NCBI GenBank assembly: GCA_044221555.1
Contig: JBGAOY010000001.1
Coordinates: 135,793-199,792, forward strand
DNA length: 64,000 nucleotides
Reading direction: 5' to 3'
Source of the DNA: Acidimicrobiales bacterium
GTDB taxonomy: Bacteria; Actinomycetota; Acidimicrobiia; Acidimicrobiales; DATDAH01
Below, in pieces: positions 9,179-21,977 of the stretch. The stretch's first letter is position 1. Every line of letters starts with the position of its first letter. The notes under the pieces are model-generated. The model made no database searches and was not told where the DNA came from. It was given only the letters and a program-made list of their open reading frames with translations. Position numbers and translations under genes: made by a program.

Positions 9179-9655
9179 TCAGTCGCGCGCTCGCTGCGTG
9201 ACCGACACCGAGTCCATGGTGTCGCCCACCGCGATGGCCTGGGCCACCTCGATCCCGTCGACCACGTAGCCGAAGAGGTTGTAGAGCGGCTGGAGCTTCT
9301 GCTGGCAGTCGTCGATGCAGATGAAGAACTGGGAGCCGTTGGTGTCGGGGCCGGCGTTGGCCATGGCCACCGCCCCGAGGGTGTACGCACCCTTCACCGG
9401 CTCGTCGGCGAACCGGTAGCCGGGGCCACCGGTGCCGCGGCCGTCGGGGTCGCCACCTTGGATGACGAACCCGGGAACGACCCGGTGGAAGGTGAGGCCG
9501 TCGTAGAAGCCGTTGCGGGCATTGACCACGAAGTGGTTGACGGTGGTGGGCGCGAGCGCGGGGTCGAGCTCCATGGTGATCTCACCCTTGGGAGTGCTGA
9601 TCACCACCTGGTACACGGCGTCGAGGTCGATCTCCATCGCGGGGGGGTTGGCCAT
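9179..9655 (-). CDS. Peptidyl-prolyl cis-trans isomerase, cyclophilin type
   Basis: FHRVVPGFVIQGGDPDGRGTGGPGYRFADE and NAGPDTNGSQFFI are cyclophilin signatures. I trimmed the 311-aa track ORF to the ATG at 9655 (MANPPAMEIDL...). Confidence 0.9.
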   Translation of the reverse strand: MANPPAMEIDLDAVYQVVISTPKGEITMELDPALAPTTVNHFVVNARNGFYDGLTFHRVVPGFVIQGGDPDGRGTGGPGYRFADEPVKGAYTLGAVAMANAGPDTNGSQFFICIDDCQQKLQPLYNLFGYVVDGIEVAQAIAVGDTMDSVSVTQRARD

Positions 9656-9704
9656 GGGGCCATGTTGGCACCTCCCGGCGACGGAGCCGAACTCGGGCGC
9701 CCTG

Positions 9705-11408
9705 CTACTGCTCGACCCAGATCTGGGCCACCTGGTGGATGCTGGTGCGCATGCCCAGGTTCTCGCCGCCGTCGGGCAGGTTGTAGCCGGTGGCGATCTG
9801 GTGCACGTCGGTCTGGCTGGCGATGGCCCACTCACCCCAGGTGAGCCACACGTTGTAGACCTTCTTGGCGAAGCGCCGGTTGATGGCCTCGGCGGCCGCG
9901 GTGCGCTCGTCGGGGTCGTCGCTCTCACGGATGATGTCGAGGTTCTGGTCGATGACCGGGTCTTGGATGCGCCCGAAGTTGATCGCCAGCGATCCGACAG
10001 GTGCCGAGGTGTCCGAGCCCCAGAACACGTTGTTCTGGTCGGGGTCCTGGGTGGCCAGGTTCCGGTAGAGGAAGATGTCGAACTCGCCCTTGGCCGCCGA
10101 CAGCACCAGCTCACCCTGCTCCTGCTGGTCGACCGAGACGTCGATGCCGATCTCGCCCATGAACTGCTGGAACAGCTGGGCGCTCAGCAGGTTGAACTGG
10201 TCCGACGTGGTGCGGATGCCAAGCTCGATGGGCCCGTTCTCGTTCTCGTACTCGTCGACCAGCTCCCTCGCCTTGTCGGGGTCGTAGGTGGGGAACCCGG
10301 TGTCCTCGAGGTAGCCCGGCGTGCCCGGAGGGAACGGCCCGTTCGCGATCCGCGCCGCCCCCGCGAACCGGGCCCGGTTCACCGTGTCGTAGTCGACGCC
10401 GAAGGCGATGGCCTTGCGCACCCGGACATCGGCCAACGGCGAGTCGGGGTCACCCTGGTTCAGCATCAGGTAGTTGGTCTCGGCGTTGTTCGAGTTCTCG
10501 ATCAGGTTGATCTGGCCGGCATCGGCCTGCTCGCGGAGCTGGACGATCGAGTCGAAGTTGGCCGTGTGCATGAGGTCGATCTGGCCGGACTCGAGGGCCG
10601 CGGTGCGCGACTGCACGTCCTCGAAGATCTTGAATTCGATCTGGTCGAGGTAGGGGAGCTTCCGGCCCTCGGCGTCGGTGCGCCAGTAGTCGGGGTTGGC
10701 GGTGGCCACGAAGCTGCCGCCCGGTGTGTACGAATCGAAGACGAAGGGCCCGGTGCCGACCGGCTCGTCGGACTGGGCGGTGCCGGCGGCGGTGGCCTCG
10801 AGCCAGTCGCCCGAGGCGACGAACCCGACCTGGGTGGTGAGCACGTAGTCGAACGCCGTCCACGGGCGCTTCAGGTTGTACTGGATCGTGTACTCGTCCA
10901 CGACCTCGGTCGAGTCGAGGTCCTTGGTGGCGATGGCCAGGGTGGGGCTGGTGGACACCCGGTCGGAGTTGATCTTGAGGTCCTCGGCGGTTAGCGGGGT
11001 GCCGTCGTGGAAGGTGATCCCCTCGCGCACTTTCACCGTCCACACCGTGAAGTCGTCGTTGTGCTCGATGCTCTCGGCGAGCACGGGCTGCACGCTGCCG
11101 TCCTCGCCGATCTCGGCGATGGGGTCGTACACGGCCCGCAGGATCTCGGAGCAGCTGGGCGCGCACAGCACCTTCTGGGGCTCCCACGGGTTCGAGGTGT
11201 CGGCCTCGATGCCGTACACCACGCTGCCGCCGTACTGGGGCTCGGCGGTGTCGGGCTCCAGGTCGGTCTGGCCGATGGCCACGGTGTCGGCGGAGCTCTC
11301 GCCGCCCGACGAGGAGCCACCGCCGCTGCCACATGCGCCGGCCACCAGGACCAGGGCCAGAGCCGCGGCGAGGAGGCGGGAGGAGCGGACGGCGGAGCGG
11401 GTGGACAT
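9705..11408 (-). CDS. ABC transporter substrate-binding lipoprotein, family 5 (peptide/nickel/opine type), copy 1
   Basis: The ORF is 567 aa. It has a lipoprotein signal LALVLVAGACGSGG and family-5 SBP sequence (GGSVVYGIEADTSNPW...FHDGTPLTAEDLK...). GAGGAGA lies upstream of the ATG. Confidence 0.85.
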   Translation of the reverse strand: MSTRSAVRSSRLLAAALALVLVAGACGSGGGSSSGGESSADTVAIGQTDLEPDTAEPQYGGSVVYGIEADTSNPWEPQKVLCAPSCSEILRAVYDPIAEIGEDGSVQPVLAESIEHNDDFTVWTVKVREGITFHDGTPLTAEDLKINSDRVSTSPTLAIATKDLDSTEVVDEYTIQYNLKRPWTAFDYVLTTQVGFVASGDWLEATAAGTAQSDEPVGTGPFVFDSYTPGGSFVATANPDYWRTDAEGRKLPYLDQIEFKIFEDVQSRTAALESGQIDLMHTANFDSIVQLREQADAGQINLIENSNNAETNYLMLNQGDPDSPLADVRVRKAIAFGVDYDTVNRARFAGAARIANGPFPPGTPGYLEDTGFPTYDPDKARELVDEYENENGPIELGIRTTSDQFNLLSAQLFQQFMGEIGIDVSVDQQEQGELVLSAAKGEFDIFLYRNLATQDPDQNNVFWGSDTSAPVGSLAINFGRIQDPVIDQNLDIIRESDDPDERTAAAEAINRRFAKKVYNVWLTWGEWAIASQTDVHQIATGYNLPDGGENLGMRTSIHQVAQIWVEQ

Positions 11409-11472
11409 GAAGGGGGGTCTCCTCGGTGCGGACGGCGGGGATCAGGGACGGGGCGGAACGGGAGCCGGTGGC

Positions 11473-12900
11473 TCAGGACCTGTCGGAGGCCTCGAGGGCG
11501 AAGTGGCAGGCGACGAAGTGGTCCTTGCCGACCTGGCGCATCTGAGGCTCCTCCTGCGCGCAGCGGTCCTGCGCGAGGGGGCAGCGGGTGCGGAAACGAC
11601 AACCGCTGGGGGGCTGGACCGGCGAGGGCAGCTCGCCGGTGAGCCGGGCGTCGGGGTCGGGCTGGACCGTCGGGTCGGGCACGGGGATGGAGTTCAGCAG
11701 CGCCTGGGTGTACGGGTGGGCGGGGCTGCGGTACAGGTCGTCGGGCCGGCCCACCTCGCAGAGCTTGCCCAGGTACATCACCGCGACCCGGTCGCTGACG
11801 TTCTTGACGACCGCCAGGTCGTGGGCGATGAACACCAGGGTGAGCTGGTAGCGGTCCTTCATGTCCTCGAGCAGGTTGAGGATCTGAGCCTGCACCGACA
11901 CGTCGAGGGCCGACACGGGCTCGTCGCAGATGATCACCTTCGGCTCGAGCACGACGGCCCTGGCGATGGCGATGCGCTGGCACTGCCCGCCCGAGAACTC
12001 GTGCGGGCGCTTGCTCATGGCCACGTCGGGATCGAGTCCGACCGCGTCGAGCACCTCGGCCACGCGGCGGCGCTCGTCCTCCCCGGTCCGGGGGAAGTCG
12101 CCGCGCGTGGTGGGCAGGTAGAGAAGGCCCATGGCCAGCAGTGGCACTGCGGCCATCGCCAGCAGCACCGGCTCGTGGAACAGGAAGACGAACGTCAGCG
12201 CGGGGAACGCGACCAGCAGGCCGAACGACAGCAGTCCTGAGTCGCGGGCCGAGTCGTCCCGACGCCAGAGGCCCACCCCGACCCGCAGGAGCCAGATGCC
12301 GAAGGCGCCCAGGATGGTGCCGAGGAGGATCCCCAGCAGCGCCGACGAGGCACCGAACGCGGCCAGGTCGGGCAACGCGATGATGGACAGGACGGCCAAC
12401 AGGCTGCCGAGGAACGCGAAGGCGCTGTACACGGCGCTGACCGCGCCGATGACCAGGGCGATGACGGCCGCGACCGCGGTGGAGATCGCCCGGCGCTCGC
12501 GGGCCCGCGGGGCCCAGATCTCGAGGGGCTCGCCCACGATGTCGCCGATCGTGCGCCGCGGGTTCAGCGACGAGATCGGGTCCTGGAAGATCATCTGCAT
12601 CTGCGTGCGGGTACGCCGCAGTTCCTCGCCGCTCAACTCGGTGAGGTCGGTGCCGTCGAAGAGCACCCGGCCCGCGGTGGGCTTCGGGAACTGCATGATC
12701 GCCCGGCCGGTGGTGGACTTGCCGCACCCCGACTCGCCGACGAGCCCGAGCGTCTCGCCCCGCCGGATGTCGAGGCTCACATCGGTGACGGCGTTGACCT
12801 TGAGCCCGGTGCGCCCCACCGGGAACTCGACGACGAGGTGCTCGACCCGCAGCAGGGCGTCGTCGTCGGCACTCAGGTGGGCGGTGCCGCTACCGGCCAT
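11473..12900 (-). CDS. Oligopeptide/dipeptide ABC transporter ATP-binding protein (OppF/DppF-like) with a roughly 135-aa hydrophobic insertion
   Basis: Motifs present are Walker A GESGCGKST, Q-loop MIFQDP, signature FSGGQCQR, Walker B IICDEPVSALD and the C-terminal Cys motif GCRFRTRCPLAQDRC..ACH. I trimmed the start to the ATG at 12900 (MAGSGTAHL...), which overlaps the OppD stop. Residues about 136-272 are four to five hydrophobic helices not found in normal OppF. Confidence 0.85.
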   Translation of the reverse strand: MAGSGTAHLSADDDALLRVEHLVVEFPVGRTGLKVNAVTDVSLDIRRGETLGLVGESGCGKSTTGRAIMQFPKPTAGRVLFDGTDLTELSGEELRRTRTQMQMIFQDPISSLNPRRTIGDIVGEPLEIWAPRARERRAISTAVAAVIALVIGAVSAVYSAFAFLGSLLAVLSIIALPDLAAFGASSALLGILLGTILGAFGIWLLRVGVGLWRRDDSARDSGLLSFGLLVAFPALTFVFLFHEPVLLAMAAVPLLAMGLLYLPTTRGDFPRTGEDERRRVAEVLDAVGLDPDVAMSKRPHEFSGGQCQRIAIARAVVLEPKVIICDEPVSALDVSVQAQILNLLEDMKDRYQLTLVFIAHDLAVVKNVSDRVAVMYLGKLCEVGRPDDLYRSPAHPYTQALLNSIPVPDPTVQPDPDARLTGELPSPVQPPSGCRFRTRCPLAQDRCAQEEPQMRQVGKDHFVACHFALEASDRS

Positions 12901-14024
12901 CAGGCACCCACCGGCTGGTCGGCGCCCGTCTGGACGGCGAGCGCGGCGGCCGACTGGCCGGCCGCGAGGTTGTCCTCGAGCGCCTTGCGGCCCTCCGGGG
13001 TGCCGACCGGGTACCAGCAGGCGAATTGGTGGCCGGGGGTGTCGCCGTCGCGCAACGGTGGCTCCTCTTCGGAACAGCGGGGCTGGGCGTACGGGCAGCG
13101 GGGGCTGAAGTTGCATCCCTTGGGGGGGTTGATCAGGTTGGGGGGCCGGCCCCCGATGATCTGCAGGCGGGTGTGGCTGGCGTCCTCGAGCTTGGGGATC
13201 GACTTCAGCAACGCCTCGGTGTAGGGCATGCGCATCTCGCGGAACAGCACCGGTGTCGGGGCCTTCTCGACCACCTTGCCGGCGTACATGACCGCGATCT
13301 CGTCCGTGCGCCCGGCCACGACGCCGAGGTCGTGGGTGACCAGGATGATGGCCATGTGGCGCTCGGTCTGTTGGGCCTTCAGCAGGTCGAGGATCTGGGC
13401 CTGCACCGTCACGTCGAGGGCGGTGGTGGGCTCGTCGGCGAAGAGCAGGCGGGGGCCACAGGCCAGCGCCACGGCGATCATCACCCGCTGGCGCATGCCG
13501 CCCGAGAGTTGGTGGGGGTACTCGTCGACGCGCTGGGCCGGCTCCGGGATCCCCACCGACGTGAGCAGCGCGATGGCGGTCTCCCGGGCCTCGCCCTTGT
13601 CCATGTCGAGGTGGTAGCGCAGCGACTCGGTGATCTGCTTGCCGACCTTCATCACCGGGTTGAGCGAGGTCATGGGGTCCTGGAAGATCATCCCCATCTC
13701 GGTGCCCCAGATGCTGCGCATCTGCTGCTGGTTGTAGTCGGAGATCGAGTGGCCCTGGTAGCGGATCGCGCCCAGGCGGACCACGTTCCGCGTCGGCAAC
13801 AGGCCCATCAGCGAGCGGGACAGGACGGTCTTGCCCGAGCCTGACTCACCGACGACGCCGAGCGTCTTGCCACGATCGAGCGTGAAGCTCACGCCGTCGA
13901 CGGCGCGCACGGTGCCCGCCGGGGTGAGGAAGTGGGTGCGGACGTCCTCGACCTCCAGCAGGGGGCCGTCGAGCTTGTCGCCCGCTGCGGTGGGGCTGGT
14001 GAGGACCACCTTCTTGCGGGCCAT
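12900..14024 (-). CDS. Oligopeptide/dipeptide ABC transporter ATP-binding protein (OppD/DppD-like)
   Basis: Motifs present are Walker A GESGSGKTV, signature LSGGMRQR, Walker B LFADEPTTALD and the C-terminal motif GCNFSPRCPYAQPRC..ACW. I trimmed the start to the ATG at 14024 (MARKKVVL...), which overlaps the permease stop. Confidence 0.9.
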   Translation of the reverse strand: MARKKVVLTSPTAAGDKLDGPLLEVEDVRTHFLTPAGTVRAVDGVSFTLDRGKTLGVVGESGSGKTVLSRSLMGLLPTRNVVRLGAIRYQGHSISDYNQQQMRSIWGTEMGMIFQDPMTSLNPVMKVGKQITESLRYHLDMDKGEARETAIALLTSVGIPEPAQRVDEYPHQLSGGMRQRVMIAVALACGPRLLFADEPTTALDVTVQAQILDLLKAQQTERHMAIILVTHDLGVVAGRTDEIAVMYAGKVVEKAPTPVLFREMRMPYTEALLKSIPKLEDASHTRLQIIGGRPPNLINPPKGCNFSPRCPYAQPRCSEEEPPLRDGDTPGHQFACWYPVGTPEGRKALEDNLAAGQSAAALAVQTGADQPVGA

Positions 14025-15046
14025 CAGAGGCGCACTTCCTTCACGTCGAAGCGTCGGCGGAGTTGGTCGCCCGCGTAGTTGAACGCCAGCAGGGTGAGGA
14101 ACATCACCGCACAGGGGATGAGCGCGATGTGCGGGGCCTCCTCGAGCGCGGTGCGACCCTCGTTGATCATGTTCCCCCAGGTGGCCGTCGGTGCCGACAC
14201 GCTGAGGCCGAGGAAGCTGAGCGCACCCTCGGCCACGATCACGATGGCGATGGCGATGAGCGAGAACGACACCATCGGCGGCACGACGTTGGGCAGGATC
14301 TCCCGCAGGATGATCCGGCCGTTCCGGGCGCCGAGGGTCCGCGAGGCCTGCACGAACTCGCGCTGCGAGAACGTCAGCGTGCTGGCCCGCGTGATGCGGG
14401 CCAGCGCGGGGATCGACAGGATCGTGAGCGTGAGTGTGATCGTGCGCAGGCTGGCCTCCTGCGTGTTGGGCGGGCTGAGGAAGGTGACGATGCCCAGGGC
14501 GAGGATCAGCGCCGGGAAGGCCAACATGATGTCCATGGCCGACATCACGATCTTCTCGAAGCGGCCGCGGAAGTAGCCGGCGGTGAGGCCGATGCTGCCG
14601 CCGAGGAGGAAGCCGAGGGTCACCGCGGCGACGCCGACGAACAACGACACCCGGGCGCCCCAGATGACCCGGGAGAACACGTCGCGGCCGAGGTCGTCGC
14701 CGCCGAAGAGGTGGAACGTCGGCGACAGGGCGCCGTTCCAGCTGCCCCCGGACGCCCAGGCCGGGGGTTGGCGCAGGGCCAGCGCGTCGATCTTGGCGGG
14801 GTCCTGCACGAACGGCAACCACGGCGCCAGCACTGCCAGCAGGATCAGCACGCCCAGCCACGTGACCGCGAGCCAGAACCCGATGCCGAGCTTGCGCACC
14901 TCGAGTTGGCCGCGGGCCTCGTCGGCCGAGACGTCGGCGGTGACCGCGTCGAACCGGATCTCGCCGGGGGCCTCGGTGAGCAGGTCGTCACCGGGCCGCT
15001 CGCTGAGCGACGGGGCGTCGTACGGTCTACGCGATGGCGCGGGCAT
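14024..15046 (-). CDS. ABC transporter permease (OppC/DppC-like)
   Basis: The ORF is 340 aa with six predicted TM segments. It has a BPD_transp_1-like EAA region (..SRTLGARNGRIILREILPNV..). Confidence 0.85.
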   Translation of the reverse strand: MPAPSRRPYDAPSLSERPGDDLLTEAPGEIRFDAVTADVSADEARGQLEVRKLGIGFWLAVTWLGVLILLAVLAPWLPFVQDPAKIDALALRQPPAWASGGSWNGALSPTFHLFGGDDLGRDVFSRVIWGARVSLFVGVAAVTLGFLLGGSIGLTAGYFRGRFEKIVMSAMDIMLAFPALILALGIVTFLSPPNTQEASLRTITLTLTILSIPALARITRASTLTFSQREFVQASRTLGARNGRIILREILPNVVPPMVSFSLIAIAIVIVAEGALSFLGLSVSAPTATWGNMINEGRTALEEAPHIALIPCAVMFLTLLAFNYAGDQLRRRFDVKEVRL

Positions 15047-15965
15047 GGCGGATCCTCGGGTCCAGGAGGGCGTAGATCAGGTCGACCGCGAAGTTGATGA
15101 TGACGAAGCCGGCGGCCACCACGACCACGACCCCCTGCACCACCAGGTAGTCACGCTGGAAGATCGAGAACACCAGCAGCTTGCCGATGCCGTTGATCGC
15201 GAAGATCTGCTCGATGATGACGGTGCCGCCGATAAGGTTGCCGATGGTGATGGCGGCCACGGTGAGCAGCGAGAAGCTCGACGGTCGGAAGGCGTGGCGG
15301 AACAGGATGCGCCGGGTGGTCATGCCCTTGGCCTTGGCCACCCCGATGTAGTCCTCCTGCAGCGTGGCGATCATGTCCGTGCGCAGGAGGCGCATGAACA
15401 CCGCGACCTGCCCGACCGCCAGCGAGACCGCGGGTAAGAAGAGCGTGTAGAGGTCCTCGTCGCCCTCCTTCACCGTCGCGGGGAACCAGTCGAGGGTGAG
15501 CGCGAACACGTAGACGAGGATGGTCGCCATGATGAAGTTGGGGACCGACAACAGGCCGAACCCCACGGTGCCGGTGATCTTGTCGAAGCGGGTGTCGGCC
15601 TTGTAGGCGGTGGCGATCCCGAGCGGTATCGCCACCACCAGGGCCAGCAGCATCGAATAGGCCATCAGCATCAGCGTCACCGGCAATCGGTCGACCAGCA
15701 GCTCCGACACCGACGAGCCGTTGACGTAGGACTCACCCAGGTCACCCTGCACCGCGTCGCCCAGCCAGCTGGCGTAGCGGACCGGGATGGGGTCGTCCAG
15801 GTTGAGGTCGGCCCGCAGCGCGGCGATCGACTCCTGGTCGGCCCCGAAGCCGAGGATGGCTGCTTCGGGGCCGCCCGGCAGCAGGTTGATCAGCATGAAG
15901 GTGAGGAACGTGACGATCAACAGCACCGCCACGAGCTGCACCAACTTGCCTCCTACGTAGCGCAC
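15027..15965 (-). CDS. ABC transporter permease (OppB/DppB-like)
   Basis: The ORF is 312 aa. Its N-terminus MRYVGGKLVQLVAVLLIVTFLTFMLINLLPGGP is the canonical OppB/DppB start, and the EAA-like motif AKAKGMTTRRILFRHAFR is present. Confidence 0.9.
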   Translation of the reverse strand: MRYVGGKLVQLVAVLLIVTFLTFMLINLLPGGPEAAILGFGADQESIAALRADLNLDDPIPVRYASWLGDAVQGDLGESYVNGSSVSELLVDRLPVTLMLMAYSMLLALVVAIPLGIATAYKADTRFDKITGTVGFGLLSVPNFIMATILVYVFALTLDWFPATVKEGDEDLYTLFLPAVSLAVGQVAVFMRLLRTDMIATLQEDYIGVAKAKGMTTRRILFRHAFRPSSFSLLTVAAITIGNLIGGTVIIEQIFAINGIGKLLVFSIFQRDYLVVQGVVVVVAAGFVIINFAVDLIYALLDPRIRHARAIA

Positions 15966-15996
15966 GTCGTGTCTGCTCCCCGGTCCGCCGCCGGCC

Positions 15997-17709
15997 TCAG
16001 TTCCCGGACTCGTCGATCCAGATCTGGCTGACCTGGTGGGCGCCGCCGATGCCGAGGACGTCGAGGACGGGATCGCCCTCCTCGGTGATGCCGCCGAGCA
16101 CGTTGTGCACGGTGGGGCTGTGCCCGATGCTCCAGATGGGCCACTCGAACCAGATGTTGTAGACCTGCTCGGCGAAGCGTCGGTTGATGGCCTCGGCCGC
16201 CTCCGTGCGGGTGTCGGGGTCGGGGTTGGTGCGGATGATGTCGAGGTTCTCGTCGATCACGTCGTCACGGATCCGGCCGAAGTTCAGGCCGAAGTCACCC
16301 GGCGCCACGGCGTTCTCGGAGTTCCACCAGATGTTCTGCTGATCGGGGTCGAAGCCGGCGTGGTTGCGCCAGCCGAACGCCTCGAAGTCGCCGGTGAGCG
16401 CGAGGCCGATGAACGAGCCCTGCTCCACCTGGTCGATGGTGACGTCGATGCCGATCGCCTCCCAGAACTGCTGGTACAGCTGGGCGGTGACCACGTTGAA
16501 CTGGTCGTTCGTCGTCTTGTAGGCGATCTCGATGGGACCGTTCTCGGCCTCGTACTCGTCCACGAGATCTCGGGCCTTGTCGGGGTCGAAGGTCGGGAAG
16601 CCGGTGTCCTCGAGGTAGCCCGGCGTCCCCGGCGGGAACGGGCCGTTGGCGATCTCGGGCACACCGCCGGATCGGGCGTCGAGGCGCGTCTGGTAGTCGA
16701 AGCCGTAGGCCAGCGCCTGGCGCACGCGGAGGTCGCTGGTGGGCAGGCTGTCGTCGCCCACGTTCAACAGGACGTAGCCGGTCTCGAGGTTGTTGGTGAT
16801 CTGGTCGACCTCGATGGTGCCGTTGTCGACCTCGGCGGCGAGCCGGTTGGTGGTGTCGCCGTTGGAGGTGTGCATGATGTTGGTCTCACCCGAGATCAGG
16901 GAGTTGAACCGGGTCTGGTCCTGCTCCTGCACCACGTACTCGATCGCGTCGAGGTAGGGCAGCGCCCGGCCCTCGGCGTCGGTGCGCCAGTAGTCGTCGT
17001 TGCGGGTGGCCCGGAAGGTGCCGCCCGGGTCGTAGGACTCGAAGACGAACGGTCCGGTGCCCACGGGCTCGGCGGCGTCGGCGGTGCCGGCCTCGACCGC
17101 GTCCAACCAGGTGGGGGAGGCCTGGTAGCCGAGCTGCCCGGTGAGGAAGGCCGGGAAGGAGACCCACGGGCCCTTGGCGGTGACCGTCACGGTCATGTCG
17201 CCGTCGGACTCGATCGTGTCGATGTAGGCGAAGGCCTTGCCGGTGAGCGGGCTGGCCTTGTCGGCCTCGAGGTTGGCGGCGATGGCGTCACCGTCGAAGG
17301 GCGTGCCGTCGTGGAACGTGATGCCGTCGCGCGCCACCAGCGTCCAGACCGTGAAGTCGTCGTTGTGGTCGAACGACTTCAGGAGGTTGGGCTGCACCTC
17401 GCCGTCGGAGTTGGCGAGGGTCAGGGGATCGAACACCGCGTGCATGATCATGTGGCACGAGATCGCGCAGACCGCGTTGGCCGGCGTCCAGGGCGACGAG
17501 GTGTCGGCCTCGATGCCGTAGCGCAGCGTGCCGCCGGTGACGGGCTCGAGGTTGGCGTCGGGGTTGGTGGTGCTGGTGGCCACGTTGGCCCCACCCCCGG
17601 ACGAGCCGCCGCCGCCGCTGTTGCCGCCGCTGCCGCAAGCCCCGCCCACCAGGACCACCGCGACGAGTAGGACGAGCAGGCGACGCCAATGCGCCGAGCA
17701 GTTCAACAC
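15997..17709 (-). CDS. ABC transporter substrate-binding lipoprotein, family 5, copy 2 (paralog of 9705-11408)
   Basis: I trimmed the 697-aa track ORF to the GTG at 17709 (VLNCSAHWRRLLVLLVAVVLVGGACGSGG..), which is preceded by GGGGGAA. The protein is colinear with copy 1 (GGTLRYGIEADTSSPW..FHDGTPFDGD..). Confidence 0.8.
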   Translation of the reverse strand: MLNCSAHWRRLLVLLVAVVLVGGACGSGGNSGGGGSSGGGANVATSTTNPDANLEPVTGGTLRYGIEADTSSPWTPANAVCAISCHMIMHAVFDPLTLANSDGEVQPNLLKSFDHNDDFTVWTLVARDGITFHDGTPFDGDAIAANLEADKASPLTGKAFAYIDTIESDGDMTVTVTAKGPWVSFPAFLTGQLGYQASPTWLDAVEAGTADAAEPVGTGPFVFESYDPGGTFRATRNDDYWRTDAEGRALPYLDAIEYVVQEQDQTRFNSLISGETNIMHTSNGDTTNRLAAEVDNGTIEVDQITNNLETGYVLLNVGDDSLPTSDLRVRQALAYGFDYQTRLDARSGGVPEIANGPFPPGTPGYLEDTGFPTFDPDKARDLVDEYEAENGPIEIAYKTTNDQFNVVTAQLYQQFWEAIGIDVTIDQVEQGSFIGLALTGDFEAFGWRNHAGFDPDQQNIWWNSENAVAPGDFGLNFGRIRDDVIDENLDIIRTNPDPDTRTEAAEAINRRFAEQVYNIWFEWPIWSIGHSPTVHNVLGGITEEGDPVLDVLGIGGAHQVSQIWIDESGN

Positions 17710-17954
17710 GATGTTCCCCCTGGTTGGTGAAGCCGGTGCTCCGGACAGTATCCCGGTTCGGTCGGCTGTGACGGTCGACACACCCGAGACCGCGCAAGGT
17801 AGCAGGCCTGGCTCGGGGCGTGGTCGCATCCCCGACCGGAGACGGTCGGCGTCGACGCGCCGGGCCAGGCCACGCCGGCCCGCGGTGGCGGGTCGACACC
17901 GGGACCGGACGGTGGGCGGGCCAGTCGGCCCGACGCACGCGCCGCGGTGCCGGG

Positions 17955-19172
17955 TCAGTCCAGCGGGACCGCGCGCTGGTAGCCGCGCGCGAAGCCGAGC
18001 ACCTGGGACACGTAGGCGTCGGAGTGGTTGTAGCTGAAGTAGGCCCGACGCAGGCCGGCGTCGCTCTCGAGCCCGGGTCCGCTCGCGCACAGGTAGTCGG
18101 CGGCGCTGAGCGCGGCGTCGTACAGGTTCTGGGGGTTCGCCACACCGTCACCGTTGCCGTCCCGGCCGTAGCGGGCCCAGGTGGAGGGGATGAACTGCAT
18201 GGGGCCGACGGCATGGTCGACGGTGGGGTCGCCGTCGAGCAGGCCGCCGTCGGTCTCGCCGATCGCCGGCAGCGGGATGCCGAAGATGGGTCGGCTCACG
18301 TCCCCGGCCGCGTCGAGCTCGGCGCCGCCGAACGTGCCGTGGCGGCCCTCGACGCGGGAGATCCCGGCCAGCGCCCACCACCGGACGCCGCAGGCCGGCT
18401 GCTCGTCGGCGAGCGTCTCCGCGGCCCGGTAGTAGGCGTCGAGCGCCACGAGGGGGAAGTCGACACCGTCCACCGGGGCGAGGACGCGTGCCGCCGCGAC
18501 CCGGGGAGCCAGGTCGAGCTCGTCGTCGGCGGCCTGGGCCTGCGTCGCCTTGGCCGAGGCGATCCGCTCGGTCACGTTCTCCAGCAGGGCCGTGCTCAGC
18601 ACCTGCTCACGGATCGCGGCGTCACGGGCGTCCTCGGCCTCGTCGCGCTCCGCGGACTGGGCGGCGTTCACCGTCGATGCCATCACCTCGCGCTGCTGGC
18701 TGGCGTTGGCGGCTTCCGGGTCGAGCAGGGGCACCGGGGGCTGGCCGCTCTCGGTGTAGCTGGCCACGGCCAGCGCGCTCATGGCCGCCTCGATGTACGC
18801 CAGCCGCTTGGCGGTGCGGTGGCGGTTGTGCTCCGCCCGCTGCACGCGGTGCTCGAGCTCGACCTTGGCCGGCCGCAACTCGGCCAGCTCCGCGGTTGCC
18901 TGCTCCCGGGCCTCGCGCGCCGCGGTCAGCGCCGCATCGAGCGAGCGGAACTCGGCGCTGTCCACCGGGACGCCCTCGAGCGCGGGGGACAGCTCGACCG
19001 TCGCGGCGACCGGCTCGTCCGCCTCCTGCGCCCCCGACGCGCGCGTGAGCGCGCCCATCGTCGTGGCGACGGTGAGCAGGGTGGCGAGCAGGCGGGTGCG
19101 GTGGGGGCGCAGGGCGGGCTCTCGGGCTCGGGGGTCGGGTCCAGGCGGTGGGGCGCACGGGTGCGGCCCCAC
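17955..19172 (-). CDS. Secreted lytic transglycosylase (MltB/SLT_2-like) with a long N-terminal helical/coiled-coil region
   Basis: The C-terminal region reads GISRVEGRHGTFGG...GPMQFIPSTWARYGRDGNGDGVANPQNLYDAALSAADYLC. A signal-like segment LLATLLTVATTMGALTRASGAQEA is present. The start (GTG at 19172) is uncertain. Confidence 0.75.
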   Translation of the reverse strand: MGPHPCAPPPGPDPRAREPALRPHRTRLLATLLTVATTMGALTRASGAQEADEPVAATVELSPALEGVPVDSAEFRSLDAALTAAREAREQATAELAELRPAKVELEHRVQRAEHNRHRTAKRLAYIEAAMSALAVASYTESGQPPVPLLDPEAANASQQREVMASTVNAAQSAERDEAEDARDAAIREQVLSTALLENVTERIASAKATQAQAADDELDLAPRVAAARVLAPVDGVDFPLVALDAYYRAAETLADEQPACGVRWWALAGISRVEGRHGTFGGAELDAAGDVSRPIFGIPLPAIGETDGGLLDGDPTVDHAVGPMQFIPSTWARYGRDGNGDGVANPQNLYDAALSAADYLCASGPGLESDAGLRRAYFSYNHSDAYVSQVLGFARGYQRAVPLD

Positions 19173-19221
19173 CCGGTACCCGTCGGCGCACCCGGTGGTG
19201 TCCTTGAGGTGTCCCCCTGCG

Positions 19222-20415
19222 TCAGCGGCGGCGAGCGGCGTCGTCGGCGAGCGCCTGGAGCACCGTCTGCGCGCTGGCCGCCCACGTGAACCGGGACGCG
19301 TGCTTCACGGCCCCGGTGCCCAGGTCGGCGAGCAGCGCCGGGTCGTCGAGCAGGCGCCCGATGGCATCGGCCATCTCGACCTCACCCTCGACGAGCAGCC
19401 CGCTGACACCATCGTCGACGGCCTCGGTGTGCCCGGGGATGCGCGACGCGACCGCCGGCGTGGCGCACGCTCCGGCCTCGGTGAGGGTCATGCCCCACCC
19501 CTCCAGCAGCGAGGCGTTGGCCACGAACCACGCCTCCTGGTAGGCGGCCACCAGCCCCTCGTCGCTCACCCGGCCGCGGAACTCGAGCCAGTCGCTCATG
19601 TCGAGGTCGCGGGCGAGCCGCTCGAGATCGGCCCGCGACGGGCCGTCGCCCACGACGACGGCCCGCAGCTCGGGGTGCTCGCGGTGGGCGCGGGCGATGG
19701 CCCGCAGCGTGGTGTCGAAGCCCTTCTGGGGCATGAGCCGACCGACCGCCGCCACCAGCGGGGTGGGGGAGCGGCGGCCACCCGGTCGGAAGCGGGGATC
19801 GACCCCGTTGGGGGCCACACGGATGTCGGCGTGGGTGAGGCCGAGGCGCTCGATGACCTCGGTGCGGGTGGACTCCGACGGGGTGACGAGGGTGGCGTTG
19901 CGATACACGACGGGGATGGCGTAGCGCTCGAGCACGTGGCCGACCTGGGCCAGTCCCGGCGGGAGGAGGAGGTGCCAGGCCCCGAGGTGGACGTGGTGCA
20001 CGAACCCCACCCGGGGACCGCGGGCCCACAGCGGCGAGAAGAACGCCACGCCGTGGAACACGTCGACCAGCCCGTCGCGGGGCCCGGCCCGGCCCGACAC
20101 CTCGCGGGCGATCGTGCGGGGGAACACGGTGAGGCGCCCACCGTGGCGGACCACCGAGTACCCGTCGCGGGTGGCCGTGGCCGGGCGGCCCGCGGCGGCG
20201 GAGGTGTGGATGGTGACCTCCAGGCCGGCGTCGGCCCAGTGCCGGGCCAGCTGCGACGCGTGCTCCTCGGACCCCCCGGCCTCGGGATCGTCGTGGTCGC
20301 GCCACGCCACGACGTGGATCCGCCGGATCCCGGCGGCGTCAGCGGTCCGGCGGAGGGTCTCGGCGGAGGGTGGCGGGGGAGGGTCGCCGGGAGGAGGCGC
20401 TGCCGGGTCGGTCAC
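19222..20415 (-). CDS. Glycosyltransferase family 4 (GT-B, group 1)
   Basis: The ORF is 397 aa. The C-terminal motif EGWGMTLTEAGACATPAVASRIPGHTEAVDDGVSGLLV is the GT1/GT4 E-x7-E region. The start is a GTG at 20415. Confidence 0.85.
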   Translation of the reverse strand: MTDPAAPPPGDPPPPPSAETLRRTADAAGIRRIHVVAWRDHDDPEAGGSEEHASQLARHWADAGLEVTIHTSAAAGRPATATRDGYSVVRHGGRLTVFPRTIAREVSGRAGPRDGLVDVFHGVAFFSPLWARGPRVGFVHHVHLGAWHLLLPPGLAQVGHVLERYAIPVVYRNATLVTPSESTRTEVIERLGLTHADIRVAPNGVDPRFRPGGRRSPTPLVAAVGRLMPQKGFDTTLRAIARAHREHPELRAVVVGDGPSRADLERLARDLDMSDWLEFRGRVSDEGLVAAYQEAWFVANASLLEGWGMTLTEAGACATPAVASRIPGHTEAVDDGVSGLLVEGEVEMADAIGRLLDDPALLADLGTGAVKHASRFTWAASAQTVLQALADDAARRR

Positions 20416-20435
20416 TCTTCTACTATCGCCTCTCC
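20416..20435. promoter_or_regulatory. 20-bp divergent spacer between the GT4 and GT2-MT start codons; possible leaderless-transcript promoter core
   Basis: The sequence tcttctactatcgcctctcc is a locally AT-richer patch. A TACTAT hexamer ends 9 nt before the ATG at 20436. No room is left for separate leaders with Shine-Dalgarno sites. Confidence 0.25.
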
Positions 20436-21977
20436 ATGGCCCCGGCCCGGACGCTCGTCATCCCGATGTACCGAGAGGCGGCGCGCATCGGGTCCACCTT
20501 GGCGGCCCTGGCCGCGTCCGCGCTCAACGAGCGGGGCACCGAGATCCTGCTGGTCGACGACGGGAGCGACGACGGCACGCCCACCATCGCCAAGTCGGTG
20601 GCCGCCGACCTCGGGCTGGCCGTCACCGTCGTCGAGTTGGGGGTGAACCAGGGCAAGGGTGCGGCGGTGCGCGCCGGGATGCTCGCCAGTCGGGGTGCGG
20701 TGGTCGCGTTCGCCGACGCCGATCTGGCCAGCGACGCGGTGGACATCGAGGCGTGCTTCCGCCGTGTCGAGGCCGGGCCCGACGACGTGGTCGTCGCGAC
20801 CCGCTCCCACCCGGACAGCACGATCACGGTGGCGGCACCCCGTCACCGGGTGGTCATCGGTCGCACCTACAACGCCTTCCTCCGTCGCCTCGACCTCACC
20901 GACAGCCTCGACACGCAATGCGGGTTGAAGGGCTTCACCGCCGACGCGGCCCGGCGCCTGTTCGGCCCGCTGCGCACCACGGGGTTCGCGTTCGACATCG
21001 AGGTGCTGGCTCGGGCGCGCCAGTGCGGGCTCTCGGTCGGCGAGATGCCGATCGCCTGGGGCCACGTGGAGGGGAGCCGGGTGGGCATGCGCAGCGGGCT
21101 GCGCTCGTTCACCGACGCGGTGGCGATCCGTCGGGCGCTCGGGCCGAGCCGGCCCCGTCACGAGCCCCCGGGTGACCGCGCCCCCACCGCCATGAGCGAG
21201 GGCAAGTACGACGTCATGGCCGCAACCGAGCGGGACCACTGGTGGTTCCGGGCCAAGCGGTCGCTGGTGGTGCAGGAGGCCCTCCGCTCCGGGGTGGACC
21301 GTTGTGGCCTGGCGGTCGACGTGGGGTGTGGCACCGGGGCCGTGCTCGACACCTTGTCGCACCGGTTCGCCAGGGTGGTGGGCACCGACCTGAGCCCTCG
21401 TGCGGCGGCGCTGGCGGCACGCCTCGTGGGGCCGGCCACGGGGCCCGTGCTGGCCAGGGCCGAGGCGTTGCCGCTGCCGTCGGCGTCGGCCTCGCTGGTG
21501 ACCAGCCTCGACGTCCTCGAGCACCTCGACGACGACGTGCAGGCACTGCGGGAGCTGCGGCGGGTCACGGCCCCGGGTGGACTGCTGGTGCTGGCGGTGC
21601 CGGCGTACGAATGGGCGTGGAGCGATCACGACGACGTGCTCGGGCATCGCCGGCGCTACACCGCCCCCCGCCTGCGCAGGGTGGTCGAGGACGCCGGCCT
21701 CGAGTGCGTCCGCGTGACGTACTTCCACTCATGGCTGGCTCCGATCGCCTTCCTCCTGCGCCGCACACCGCTGCGGCGCCTGGTGGGCGGCGACCAGGAG
21801 GAGGCCAGCTACGTCAGCCCTGCGGTCAACCGCGCCTTCGTGGCCGTCACCACCCTCGAGCGGTGGCTCATCCGGTGGCTGGCGCTTCCGTTCGGTCTGT
21901 CGATCCTGCTGGTGGCGCGGCGCCCGGCTTCGGGCGGAGCCACGGAAGGCCGGGCCACGACGCGGGCACCAGGCTGA
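20436..21977 (+). CDS. Fusion protein: GT2 polyprenyl-phosphate glycosyltransferase (dolichyl-phosphate glucosyl/mannosyl-transferase-like) plus class I SAM-dependent methyltransferase with a C-terminal TM
   Basis: The N-terminal half reads LVIPMYREAARI..ILLVDDGSDDGT..FADADL..QCGLKGF..FAFDIEVL (GT2, DXD). The C-terminal half reads VDVGCGTGAV..LVTSLDVLEHLDDD..LRELRRVTAPGGLLVLAVP (Methyltransf_11/23-like), followed by the hydrophobic tail WLALPFGLSILLVA. I trimmed the start to the ATG at 20436. Confidence 0.8.
   Translation: MAPARTLVIPMYREAARIGSTLAALAASALNERGTEILLVDDGSDDGTPTIAKSVAADLGLAVTVVELGVNQGKGAAVRAGMLASRGAVVAFADADLASDAVDIEACFRRVEAGPDDVVVATRSHPDSTITVAAPRHRVVIGRTYNAFLRRLDLTDSLDTQCGLKGFTADAARRLFGPLRTTGFAFDIEVLARARQCGLSVGEMPIAWGHVEGSRVGMRSGLRSFTDAVAIRRALGPSRPRHEPPGDRAPTAMSEGKYDVMAATERDHWWFRAKRSLVVQEALRSGVDRCGLAVDVGCGTGAVLDTLSHRFARVVGTDLSPRAAALAARLVGPATGPVLARAEALPLPSASASLVTSLDVLEHLDDDVQALRELRRVTAPGGLLVLAVPAYEWAWSDHDDVLGHRRRYTAPRLRRVVEDAGLECVRVTYFHSWLAPIAFLLRRTPLRRLVGGDQEEASYVSPAVNRAFVAVTTLERWLIRWLALPFGLSILLVARRPASGGATEGRATTRAPG

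Follow-up and report, generated by a model that had tools for sequence, protein, structure and literature searches.

A predicted four-helix membrane module nested within the ATPase domain of an OppF-type protein from an Acidimicrobiales bacterium

A 64,000-nucleotide stretch of DNA from an Acidimicrobiales bacterium (GenBank assembly GCA_044221555.1, contig JBGAOY010000001.1, positions 135,793 to 199,792 of the forward strand; hereafter the window) carries an opp transport operon whose last gene encodes an OppF-type ATP-binding cassette (ABC) ATPase of unusual architecture. The ABC domain of this protein is split by an insert of 141–143 amino acids (aa) that is predicted to form four transmembrane (TM) helices. 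We find that the domain insertion is real, that it is translated and that selection maintains it, and the sequence of the insert points to a remote relationship with small free-standing membrane proteins of the DUF7144 and DUF2127 families. Most likely the nested module acts as a built-in membrane anchor beside the OppC permease, a reading to which we give somewhat better than even credence.

A membrane-type insert within an intact ATPase

The oppF gene begins with an ATG that overlaps the stop codon of oppD (TGATG) and encodes a product of 475 aa plus stop. The features of the gene and its product are listed below, with positions in the window and the basis of each assignment in parentheses; NBD denotes the nucleotide-binding domain.

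11473–12900, minus strand: OppF-type ABC ATPase gene with nested, predicted membrane domain (open reading frame list, translation, Pfam)
12514–12900, minus strand: N-terminal NBD part, aa 1–129 (Pfam stretch aa 39–133, invariant columns)
12085–12513, minus strand: nested insert with four predicted TM helices, aa 130–272, DUF7144/DUF2127-like (hydropathy, AlphaFold2, profile matches, hhalign, ratio of non-synonymous to synonymous substitution or dN/dS)
12391–12486, minus strand: predicted TM1, aa 139–170, a single long helix (AlphaFold2 with DSSP; Kyte-Doolittle hydropathy up to 2.35)
12262–12354, minus strand: predicted TM2, aa 183–213, ending in a GLWRRD motif (AlphaFold2; the motif is also in free-standing homologs)
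12250–12261, minus strand: short loop, aa 214–217 (RRDD), predicted cytoplasmic (R214 conservation, lysine and arginine enrichment)
12178–12249, minus strand: predicted TM3, aa 218–241 (AlphaFold2)
12118–12171, minus strand: predicted TM4, aa 244–261 (AlphaFold2)
12085–12117, minus strand: C-terminal linker of the insert, aa 262–272, with an (R/K)xDF motif and near-invariant D268 (alignments; free-standing homologs)
11476–12084, minus strand: C-terminal NBD part, aa 273–475 (NCBIfam profiles from aa 274–276, PDB alignments)
11506–11601, minus strand: cysteines C434, C440, C447 and C465, putative [4Fe-4S] ligands (invariant in 71 sequences)

The Pfam ABC_tran profile (PF00005) matches the protein in two stretches (113 bits), the better one covering aa 39–133 and profile positions 2–80 of 137, and matches to the NCBIfam OppF/DppF profiles resume at aa 274–276, after the insert; the oligo_HPY domain (PF08352), specific to Opp/Dpp proteins, follows at aa 382–447 (70 bits). 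A preliminary description, made from the letters of the sequence, had stated that the ATPase motifs are all intact and that ordinary OppF and DppF proteins have only a short linker at this point, and both statements hold. The N-terminal part (aa 1–129) contains the Walker A motif at 55–63, the Q-loop glutamine Q106 and, in helix 1 of the helical subdomain, N113 and E124; the C-terminal part (aa 273–475) contains the signature FSGGQ at 302–306, Walker B with E327, H360 and the oligo_HPY domain. Walker A (G55–T63), Q106, SGGQ (303–306), D326/E327, the D-loop and H360 are all present and are invariant among 71 insert-bearing homologs, each of which represents a cluster at 90% identity. Between the Q-loop (FQDP) and the signature (SGGQ) lie 198 residues, compared with 56–61 in the other 156 NBDs of the 81 loci that we fetched, and when the insert is removed in silico the protein is colinear with E. 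coli OppF (8z21_D, E 1.5e-100). With 141 aa subtracted the four cysteines fall at 293, 299, 306 and 324; the [4Fe-4S] ligands of E. coli DppF are C293, C299, C306 and C323 (PMC12136057), and by this correspondence C434, C440, C447 and C465 are the putative ligands here. The protein scores below the NCBIfam equivalog cut-offs (389 bits versus 540 for the OppF model NF011659, and 353 versus 408 for NF008453) because the insert splits the profile match. Judged by its domains, motifs and operon it is an OppF-type ATPase, to be classed as a subfamily member and not as an equivalog at the NCBI threshold.

Hydropathy over the insert reaches four peaks of 2.35, 2.04, 1.97 and 1.91 (Kyte-Doolittle, 19-residue means). 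An AlphaFold2 model of the full protein, run with an alignment of 71 sequences, has a mean predicted local distance difference test score (pLDDT) of 87.6 and a predicted template modelling score (pTM) of 0.80, and consists of a normal NBD, its two halves packed in the usual way around the insert, plus four long helices at 139–170, 183–213, 218–241 and 244–261 (pLDDT mostly 90–98); the insert modelled alone gives the same four helices (pLDDT 90.8). The preliminary description counted four to five hydrophobic helices, and four is the number that stands, its first two segments being a single 32-residue helix (aa 139–170) in the model. It placed the insert at 12085–12495 (aa 136–272), of which the end at 12085 (aa 272) is retained and the other moves to 12513 (aa 130). 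Foldseek returned only standard NBDs for the whole model against the PDB, and for the insert alone it gave no significant match to a solved structure (best E 0.95).

The distribution of charge supports a particular orientation. Across 72 inserts the two putative outer loops, which are very short (12 and 2 residues) and show little conservation, hold a mean of 0.17 and 0.0 lysine plus arginine residues per sequence, and the first holds a mean of 1.75 aspartate plus glutamate; the linkers and the central loop hold a mean of 1.1–1.6 lysine plus arginine. This pattern follows the positive-inside rule with both ends of the insert predicted to be cytoplasmic, an arrangement for which an even number of helices is needed since both ends must return to the cytoplasm. 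Model, hydropathy and charge thus agree in predicting four TM helices with both termini on the same side. One homolog, P0099 (564 aa), has an extra polar segment of ∼70 aa, rich in Thr, Val and Asp, within the TM3–TM4 loop; this segment is presumably outside the cell and is consistent with an outward-facing loop. We also note an AT-skew spike of 0.545 on the plus strand over the insert (window 12150–12449), which arises because hydrophobic codons on the minus strand have T-rich second positions, so that it is a signature of TM sequence and not a separate feature.

The preliminary description raised misassembly, a frameshift and an intein-like excision as ways in which the insert could prove illusory, and none has left a sign. 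The reading frame is continuous, as had been reported, with GC content at third codon positions (GC3) of 0.90–1.0 through the insert in the OppF frame, the same as in the flanks. A protein with exactly this sequence is publicly recorded (P0121); its 90%-identity cluster also contains four close variants, taken from separate assemblies of NCBI, ENA and Logan. Measured against the ortholog of locus L001 (96% identical), dN/dS is 0.20 in the insert (27.5 synonymous and 14.5 non-synonymous changes), compared with 0.03 and 0 in the two flanks; selection on the insert is relaxed relative to the catalytic core yet clearly purifying. The junctions read W|APRA and PRT|GEDE, a Pfam scan of the protein gave no Hint, intein, homing-endonuclease or transposase domain at E≤0.1, and the insert does not qualify as an intein or mobile insertion. 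An artefact, or an element excised from the mature protein, would be suggested by the prior oddity of the architecture and by a nine-nucleotide direct repeat, CGAGCGCCG (E-R-R), at both borders of the insert (window 12499–12491 and 12076–12068; gene positions 402–410 and 825–833), between whose copies a deletion gives a protein colinear with E. coli OppF. We estimate, however, that this repeat is at about chance level in GC-rich DNA, and the architecture recurs across many independent assemblies and in loci with the same opp operon order. The composition of the insert is TM-like and not intein-like, and the NBD halves pack normally around it. Misassembly, a frameshift joining two genes and an intein are ruled out by GC3, the Pfam scan, the independent assemblies and dN/dS, and an artefact or an excised mobile element of any of these kinds is extremely improbable. 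The claim that a multi-helix membrane-type module lies in frame within the helical subdomain is thus borne out by the split Pfam and NCBIfam matches, the modelled helices, the positive-inside charges and the purifying selection.

Family, origin and probable loss of the insert

The insert is a conserved family trait and is not peculiar to the source genome. Among the 120 best homologs, at least 71 have an insert in this position, with a Q-loop-to-signature distance of 171–209 residues (275 in one), as against 56–63 in homologs of standard form; the rest comprise about 22 standard proteins of 336–354 aa (plus one of 423 aa) and fused OppDF proteins. The inserts are homologous to one another, the window insert scoring up to 56 bits against the others by phmmer (shuffled copies at most 8 bits), and the different insert sequence types are joined transitively by jackhmmer. 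They keep length, helix number and motifs, among them R214 in the W-R-R-D loop, conserved in at least 90% of the 71 sequences, and D268 in (R/K)xDF. The insert changes quickly: compared with the ortholog P0001 of locus L001, it differs at 13 of 143 aa and the flanks at 2 of ∼330, so that it evolves about 15 times faster. As a separate matter, P0001 (L001 9380–9533) ends in an extra 35-residue Cys-rich tail that begins ERVCPSCSTPITGDPSFCRSCGLSFEKG and is zinc ribbon-like; the window protein departs from it from residue 462 on and terminates earlier (window 11476–11520).

The closest relatives of the OppF flanks in named genomes, from a scan of GTDB genomes, are Acidimicrobiales/Acidimicrobiia metagenome-assembled genomes (MAGs). 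That scan returned mostly fused OppDF genes, and an insert was present only in locus L008 (7001–8356), from the Acidimicrobiia MAG Dino_bin48. Its OppF has a different insert of ∼122 residues in the same loop, with two hydrophobic helices separated by an acidic segment, plus a Trp/Arg-rich lead-in. Membrane-type insertions seem to favour this loop of the OppF helical subdomain.

When the insert is searched on its own, as a profile built from 22 inserts and run with HMMER exhaustively against 1.84 billion representative proteins, it matches 230 proteins at E≤1e-3. Among the best 150 of these, OppF fragments aside, nearly all are free-standing proteins of 120–250 aa that match from end to end, and of 60 free-standing proteins scanned 26 match Pfam DUF7144 and 20 match DUF2127. 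Comparison of the insert alignment with the free-standing alignment by hhalign gives a probability of 99.3% (E 1e-20, 138 columns), and in the reverse direction a hidden Markov model trained only on the free-standing proteins detects the window insert (68 bits, low bias). Three motifs are common to both: an N-terminal R..TT.AA.L, G.GLW(R/K)..WAR after TM2, and LL.P..(R/K).(D/A)F after TM4, and this agreement argues for true homology. The search recommended at the outset has led to small DUF7144/DUF2127-like membrane proteins, with no mobile-element domain found in Pfam. The window insert itself does not match the Pfam DUF7144 or DUF2127 models and falls short of their gathering scores, and the full-length match is reached through intermediates; by sequence comparison we place the insert as a remote relative of these families. 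Word-indexed protein searches gave no match, whether the query was the insert itself or its profile. We judge these to be false negatives, hydrophobic queries having been missed at the candidate step, because P0001 scores 257 bits locally and HMMER gives 230 matches.

A closely related OppF provides an informative contrast. P0029 (336 aa, locus L082) shares 85.5% identity with the window protein when the insert is set aside and has the same gene order, with the other operon proteins 82–91% identical, but in place of the insert there is an 11-residue linker, NRGTKAERSAR. In the preliminary description a relative without the segment was to count as a sign of artefact; such a relative does exist, and what it indicates is dispensability. 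Separately, the OppC proteins of the window and L001 have 13 extra residues in the first periplasmic loop relative to L082 (the WASGGSWNGALSPTF region, OppC aa 96–110), and this indel is the only length difference in the alignment of OppC from the window, L001 and L082.

All 100 bootstrap replicates unite the window protein, P0001 and the P0029 group in one clade; only 43 of the 100 give it an insert-bearing sister group, and the tree does not settle the deeper branching order. In nearly every segment along the alignment, including those adjacent to the junctions, the flanks of the window protein are nearer to insert-less orthologs than to other insert-bearing proteins. We find no mosaic signal along OppF, including near the junction, and the divergence of the window insert from other inserts matches the expectation for vertical descent; together these speak against a recent acquisition of the insert by recombination. 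The simplest history is probably an old insertion, vertical inheritance and a clean deletion in the P0029 lineage, where loss is favoured over regain, and the insert may also have been lost in a second group of standard length, which occupies a similar locus. On this history the insert would be ancient in a probably acidimicrobial lineage, fast-evolving, and cleanly lost in at least one sister lineage; as it could be lost cleanly, it would be accessory and not essential.

Position at the permease interface and possible roles

In ABC importers the NBD is a soluble subunit that docks non-covalently on the membrane part via a coupling helix. The insert begins six residues after E124, in the loop between helices 1 and 2 of the helical subdomain; in MalK, K106 in the equivalent loop is reportedly cross-linked to the EAA loops (work attributed to Hunke and colleagues, 2000). 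The window protein is in register with DppF from residue 34, and all members of the family have N113 and E124. The DppF residues with these numbers bond to the coupling region of DppC in the structure of E. coli DppBCDF (PMC12136057), and more generally the helical subdomain is the variable part of ABC NBDs that couples to the transmembrane domains (TMDs) (PMC6906923). With linkers as short as 9 and 12 residues, the four helices would have to lie near the membrane-facing surface of OppF, beside OppC.

We therefore propose an arrangement, drawn from sequence and modelling, in which both ends of the module would be cytoplasmic, leaving the NBD halves to fold together as usual, and in which the four helices would span the membrane beside the OppC permease, since the insert departs from the NBD six residues past E124. 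The module would serve as a built-in membrane anchor and an extra TMD contact, holding OppF permanently at the translocator, and it might also link movement of the helical subdomain mechanically to the membrane part. In E. coli Dpp, mutating or oxidising the [4Fe-4S] clusters makes assembly of the complex collapse (PMC12136057); more speculatively, a covalent anchor would lessen the need for the cluster in assembly.

Several observations weigh against an anchor derived from these families. Membrane insertion itself, placement beside OppC and an anchoring or coupling role are read from sequence and from a single-chain model. The P0029 ortholog lacks the insert, with no compensating change in OppC beyond the 13-residue indel, and any role of the insert is dispensable. 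Insert identity falls to ∼19% where the flanks are 75% identical, and such rapid evolution fits a loosely constrained anchor and equally a weakly selected passenger. As regards the relationship to free-standing proteins, the best Pfam E-values among the 22 inserts were 0.0014 for DUF7144 and 0.088 for DUF2127, from one insert each, and hydrophobic composition may inflate the profile scores. No ABC transporter genes neighbour the free-standing homologs in five genomic contexts, mostly very short contigs, and the searchable literature, in which subscription journals are thinly covered, contains no characterisation or function for DUF2127 or DUF7144.

Could the insert instead be a regulatory or sensor module, responding to lipid state, a ligand, a partner or membrane potential and gating ATP hydrolysis or transport? 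It sits in the subdomain that transmits coupling between NBD and TMD and rotates during the ATPase cycle, the conserved charged residues R214 (WRRD loop) and D268 ((R/K)xDF) at its cytoplasmic face suggest a specific interaction over plain anchoring, and the module exists as an independent protein family, presumably with a function of its own; the dN/dS of 0.20 is in keeping with this. Set against these points are the lack of any evident ligand-binding feature, the tiny and poorly conserved outer loops, the very fast divergence of the TM sequences, and loss of the insert without visible compensation, together with a DUF family that has no known function, and we regard a sensor as unlikely. Alternatively the insert may be a tolerated passenger: a fragment of a gene for a small membrane protein would have landed long ago, by accident, in a permissive surface loop and persisted as an almost harmless addition, contributing nothing to transport and selected only for hydrophobicity and foldability, as misfolding would be toxic. 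Such a passenger would account readily for the absence of the insert from the syntenic ortholog and from other nested clades of standard length, and for its roughly fifteen-fold faster evolution. The different two-helix insert of L008 and the length variants elsewhere, all at the same loop, likewise indicate that the site is permissive. It accounts less well for the retention of the insert in at least 71 clusters across ∼75% flank identity with length, helix number and motifs conserved, or for a dN/dS well below neutrality, and pure neutrality over such divergence is unlikely given the cost of producing four TM helices and placing them in the membrane; we hold this explanation to be rather improbable. 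A bolder possibility is a Rosetta-stone fusion, in which DUF7144/DUF2127 proteins would be accessory subunits docking on ABC importers or other membrane machines, one of which has been built covalently into OppF as a third membrane component active in the transport cycle. The module might then relay helical-subdomain rotation directly to the helices of OppC, or keep OppF assembled on loss of the [4Fe-4S] cluster. We consider this a long shot; if true, it would give a first function for two DUF families and a new mode of coupling between NBD and membrane.

The window system has much in common with canonical ones. It shares with E. coli OppF (8Z21_D) and DppF (8Z1V_D) and with M. tuberculosis OppD (8J5Q_D) the ATPase motifs and an oligo_HPY domain with four cysteines, and with canonical OppF/DppF the contact residues N113/E124 and the SBP-OppB-OppC-OppD-OppF gene order (SBP, substrate-binding protein). 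It differs in that canonical and solved Opp/Dpp ATPases have a loop of ∼10 residues at the site where the window protein has 141–143 residues and four predicted TM helices; no solved Opp/Dpp structure has an equivalent, in agreement with the initial view of the module as highly unusual. The DUF7144/DUF2127 proteins resemble the insert in their size (∼130–150 aa), four helices and three motifs, but are free-standing, some with Pro/Gly-rich tails or with zinc-ribbon or DUF2510 N-termini, whereas the window module is nested in an enzyme domain.

There are hints from mollicutes that Opp NBDs tolerate large insertions. The profiles NF043078 (OppF, MMSYN1_0168, 649 positions) and NF043079 (OppD, MMSYN1_0167, 561 positions) are ∼230–320 positions above standard, and positions 473–605 of the 649 in NF043078 correspond to the C-terminal half of the window NBD, which implies extra material ahead of them; the window protein scores 287 bits against a cut-off of 800, and the comparison is one of profile length only. 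The regulatory insertion in NBD1 of CFTR is likewise an added segment in a variable part of an NBD, but it is soluble, disordered and located elsewhere in the NBD. In half-transporter exporters the TMDs are fused terminally to the NBD and form the translocation pathway; unlike such fusions, the window system keeps a complete OppB/OppC pair and its TM module is internal to the NBD fold. We found no ABC importer NBD with a nested polytopic membrane domain in the PDB, Pfam, NCBIfam or the searchable literature, with the same thin coverage of subscription journals.

The insert-bearing lineage amounts to a natural experiment on how much freedom the helical subdomain needs in the ATPase cycle, and it also informs how assembly of NBD and TMD is secured and how domain insertion builds new membrane-protein architectures. 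It provides a first functional context for relatives of the uncharacterised DUF7144 and DUF2127 families, and the P0029 ortholog is a ready-made insert-less control with 85% core identity. The practical impact is modest, the organisms being uncultured and the insert dispensable in relatives.

The opp locus and its neighbours

OppF is the last gene of an SBP-OppB-OppC-OppD-OppF operon, as it also is in loci L001, L084, L086 and L087. The other genes of the window locus are as follows.

12900–14039, minus strand: OppD, the partner ATPase, without insert (NCBIfam OppD/DppD, single stretch)
14024–15046, minus strand: OppC permease, the expected TMD partner of OppF (Pfam BPD_transp_1; DppC-DppF pairing in E. 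coli)
15027–15965, minus strand: OppB permease (Pfam BPD_transp_1_N and BPD_transp_1)
15997–17709, minus strand: upstream family-5 SBP (Pfam SBP_bac_5)
9705–11408, minus strand: second family-5 SBP, downstream of OppF (Pfam SBP_bac_5; N-terminal LVAGAC, lipobox-like)

The conserved order of the locus is an SLT_2 lytic transglycosylase, SBP, OppB, OppC, OppD, OppF and a cyclophilin. L001, L086 and L087 match the gene order of the window, with different insert types occupying this locus, and L084 matches the SBP-OppBCDF operon order only, without the flanking genes. The second SBP precedes the cyclophilin in the window, L001 and L082 and is missing in L084, L086 and L087. The SLT_2 and cyclophilin neighbours are kept in the window (9179–21977) and in L001, L082, L086, L087 and L088.

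Genes related to the cell envelope lie near the opp operon (GT2-methyltransferase, GT4, AftD and PMT_2), and the best NCBIfam match of the window OppF is to murein-tripeptide/oligopeptide OppF; judging from these annotations, the system may recycle cell-wall peptides. An Rfam scan found no RNA families in the window. Finally, the related locus L088 (3354–6997), whose OppF is of standard form, has a single 707-residue gene call covering OppC and OppD and an SBP gene that appears cut down to 178 residues, an arrangement that could reflect fusion plus decay, or a gene-calling problem.

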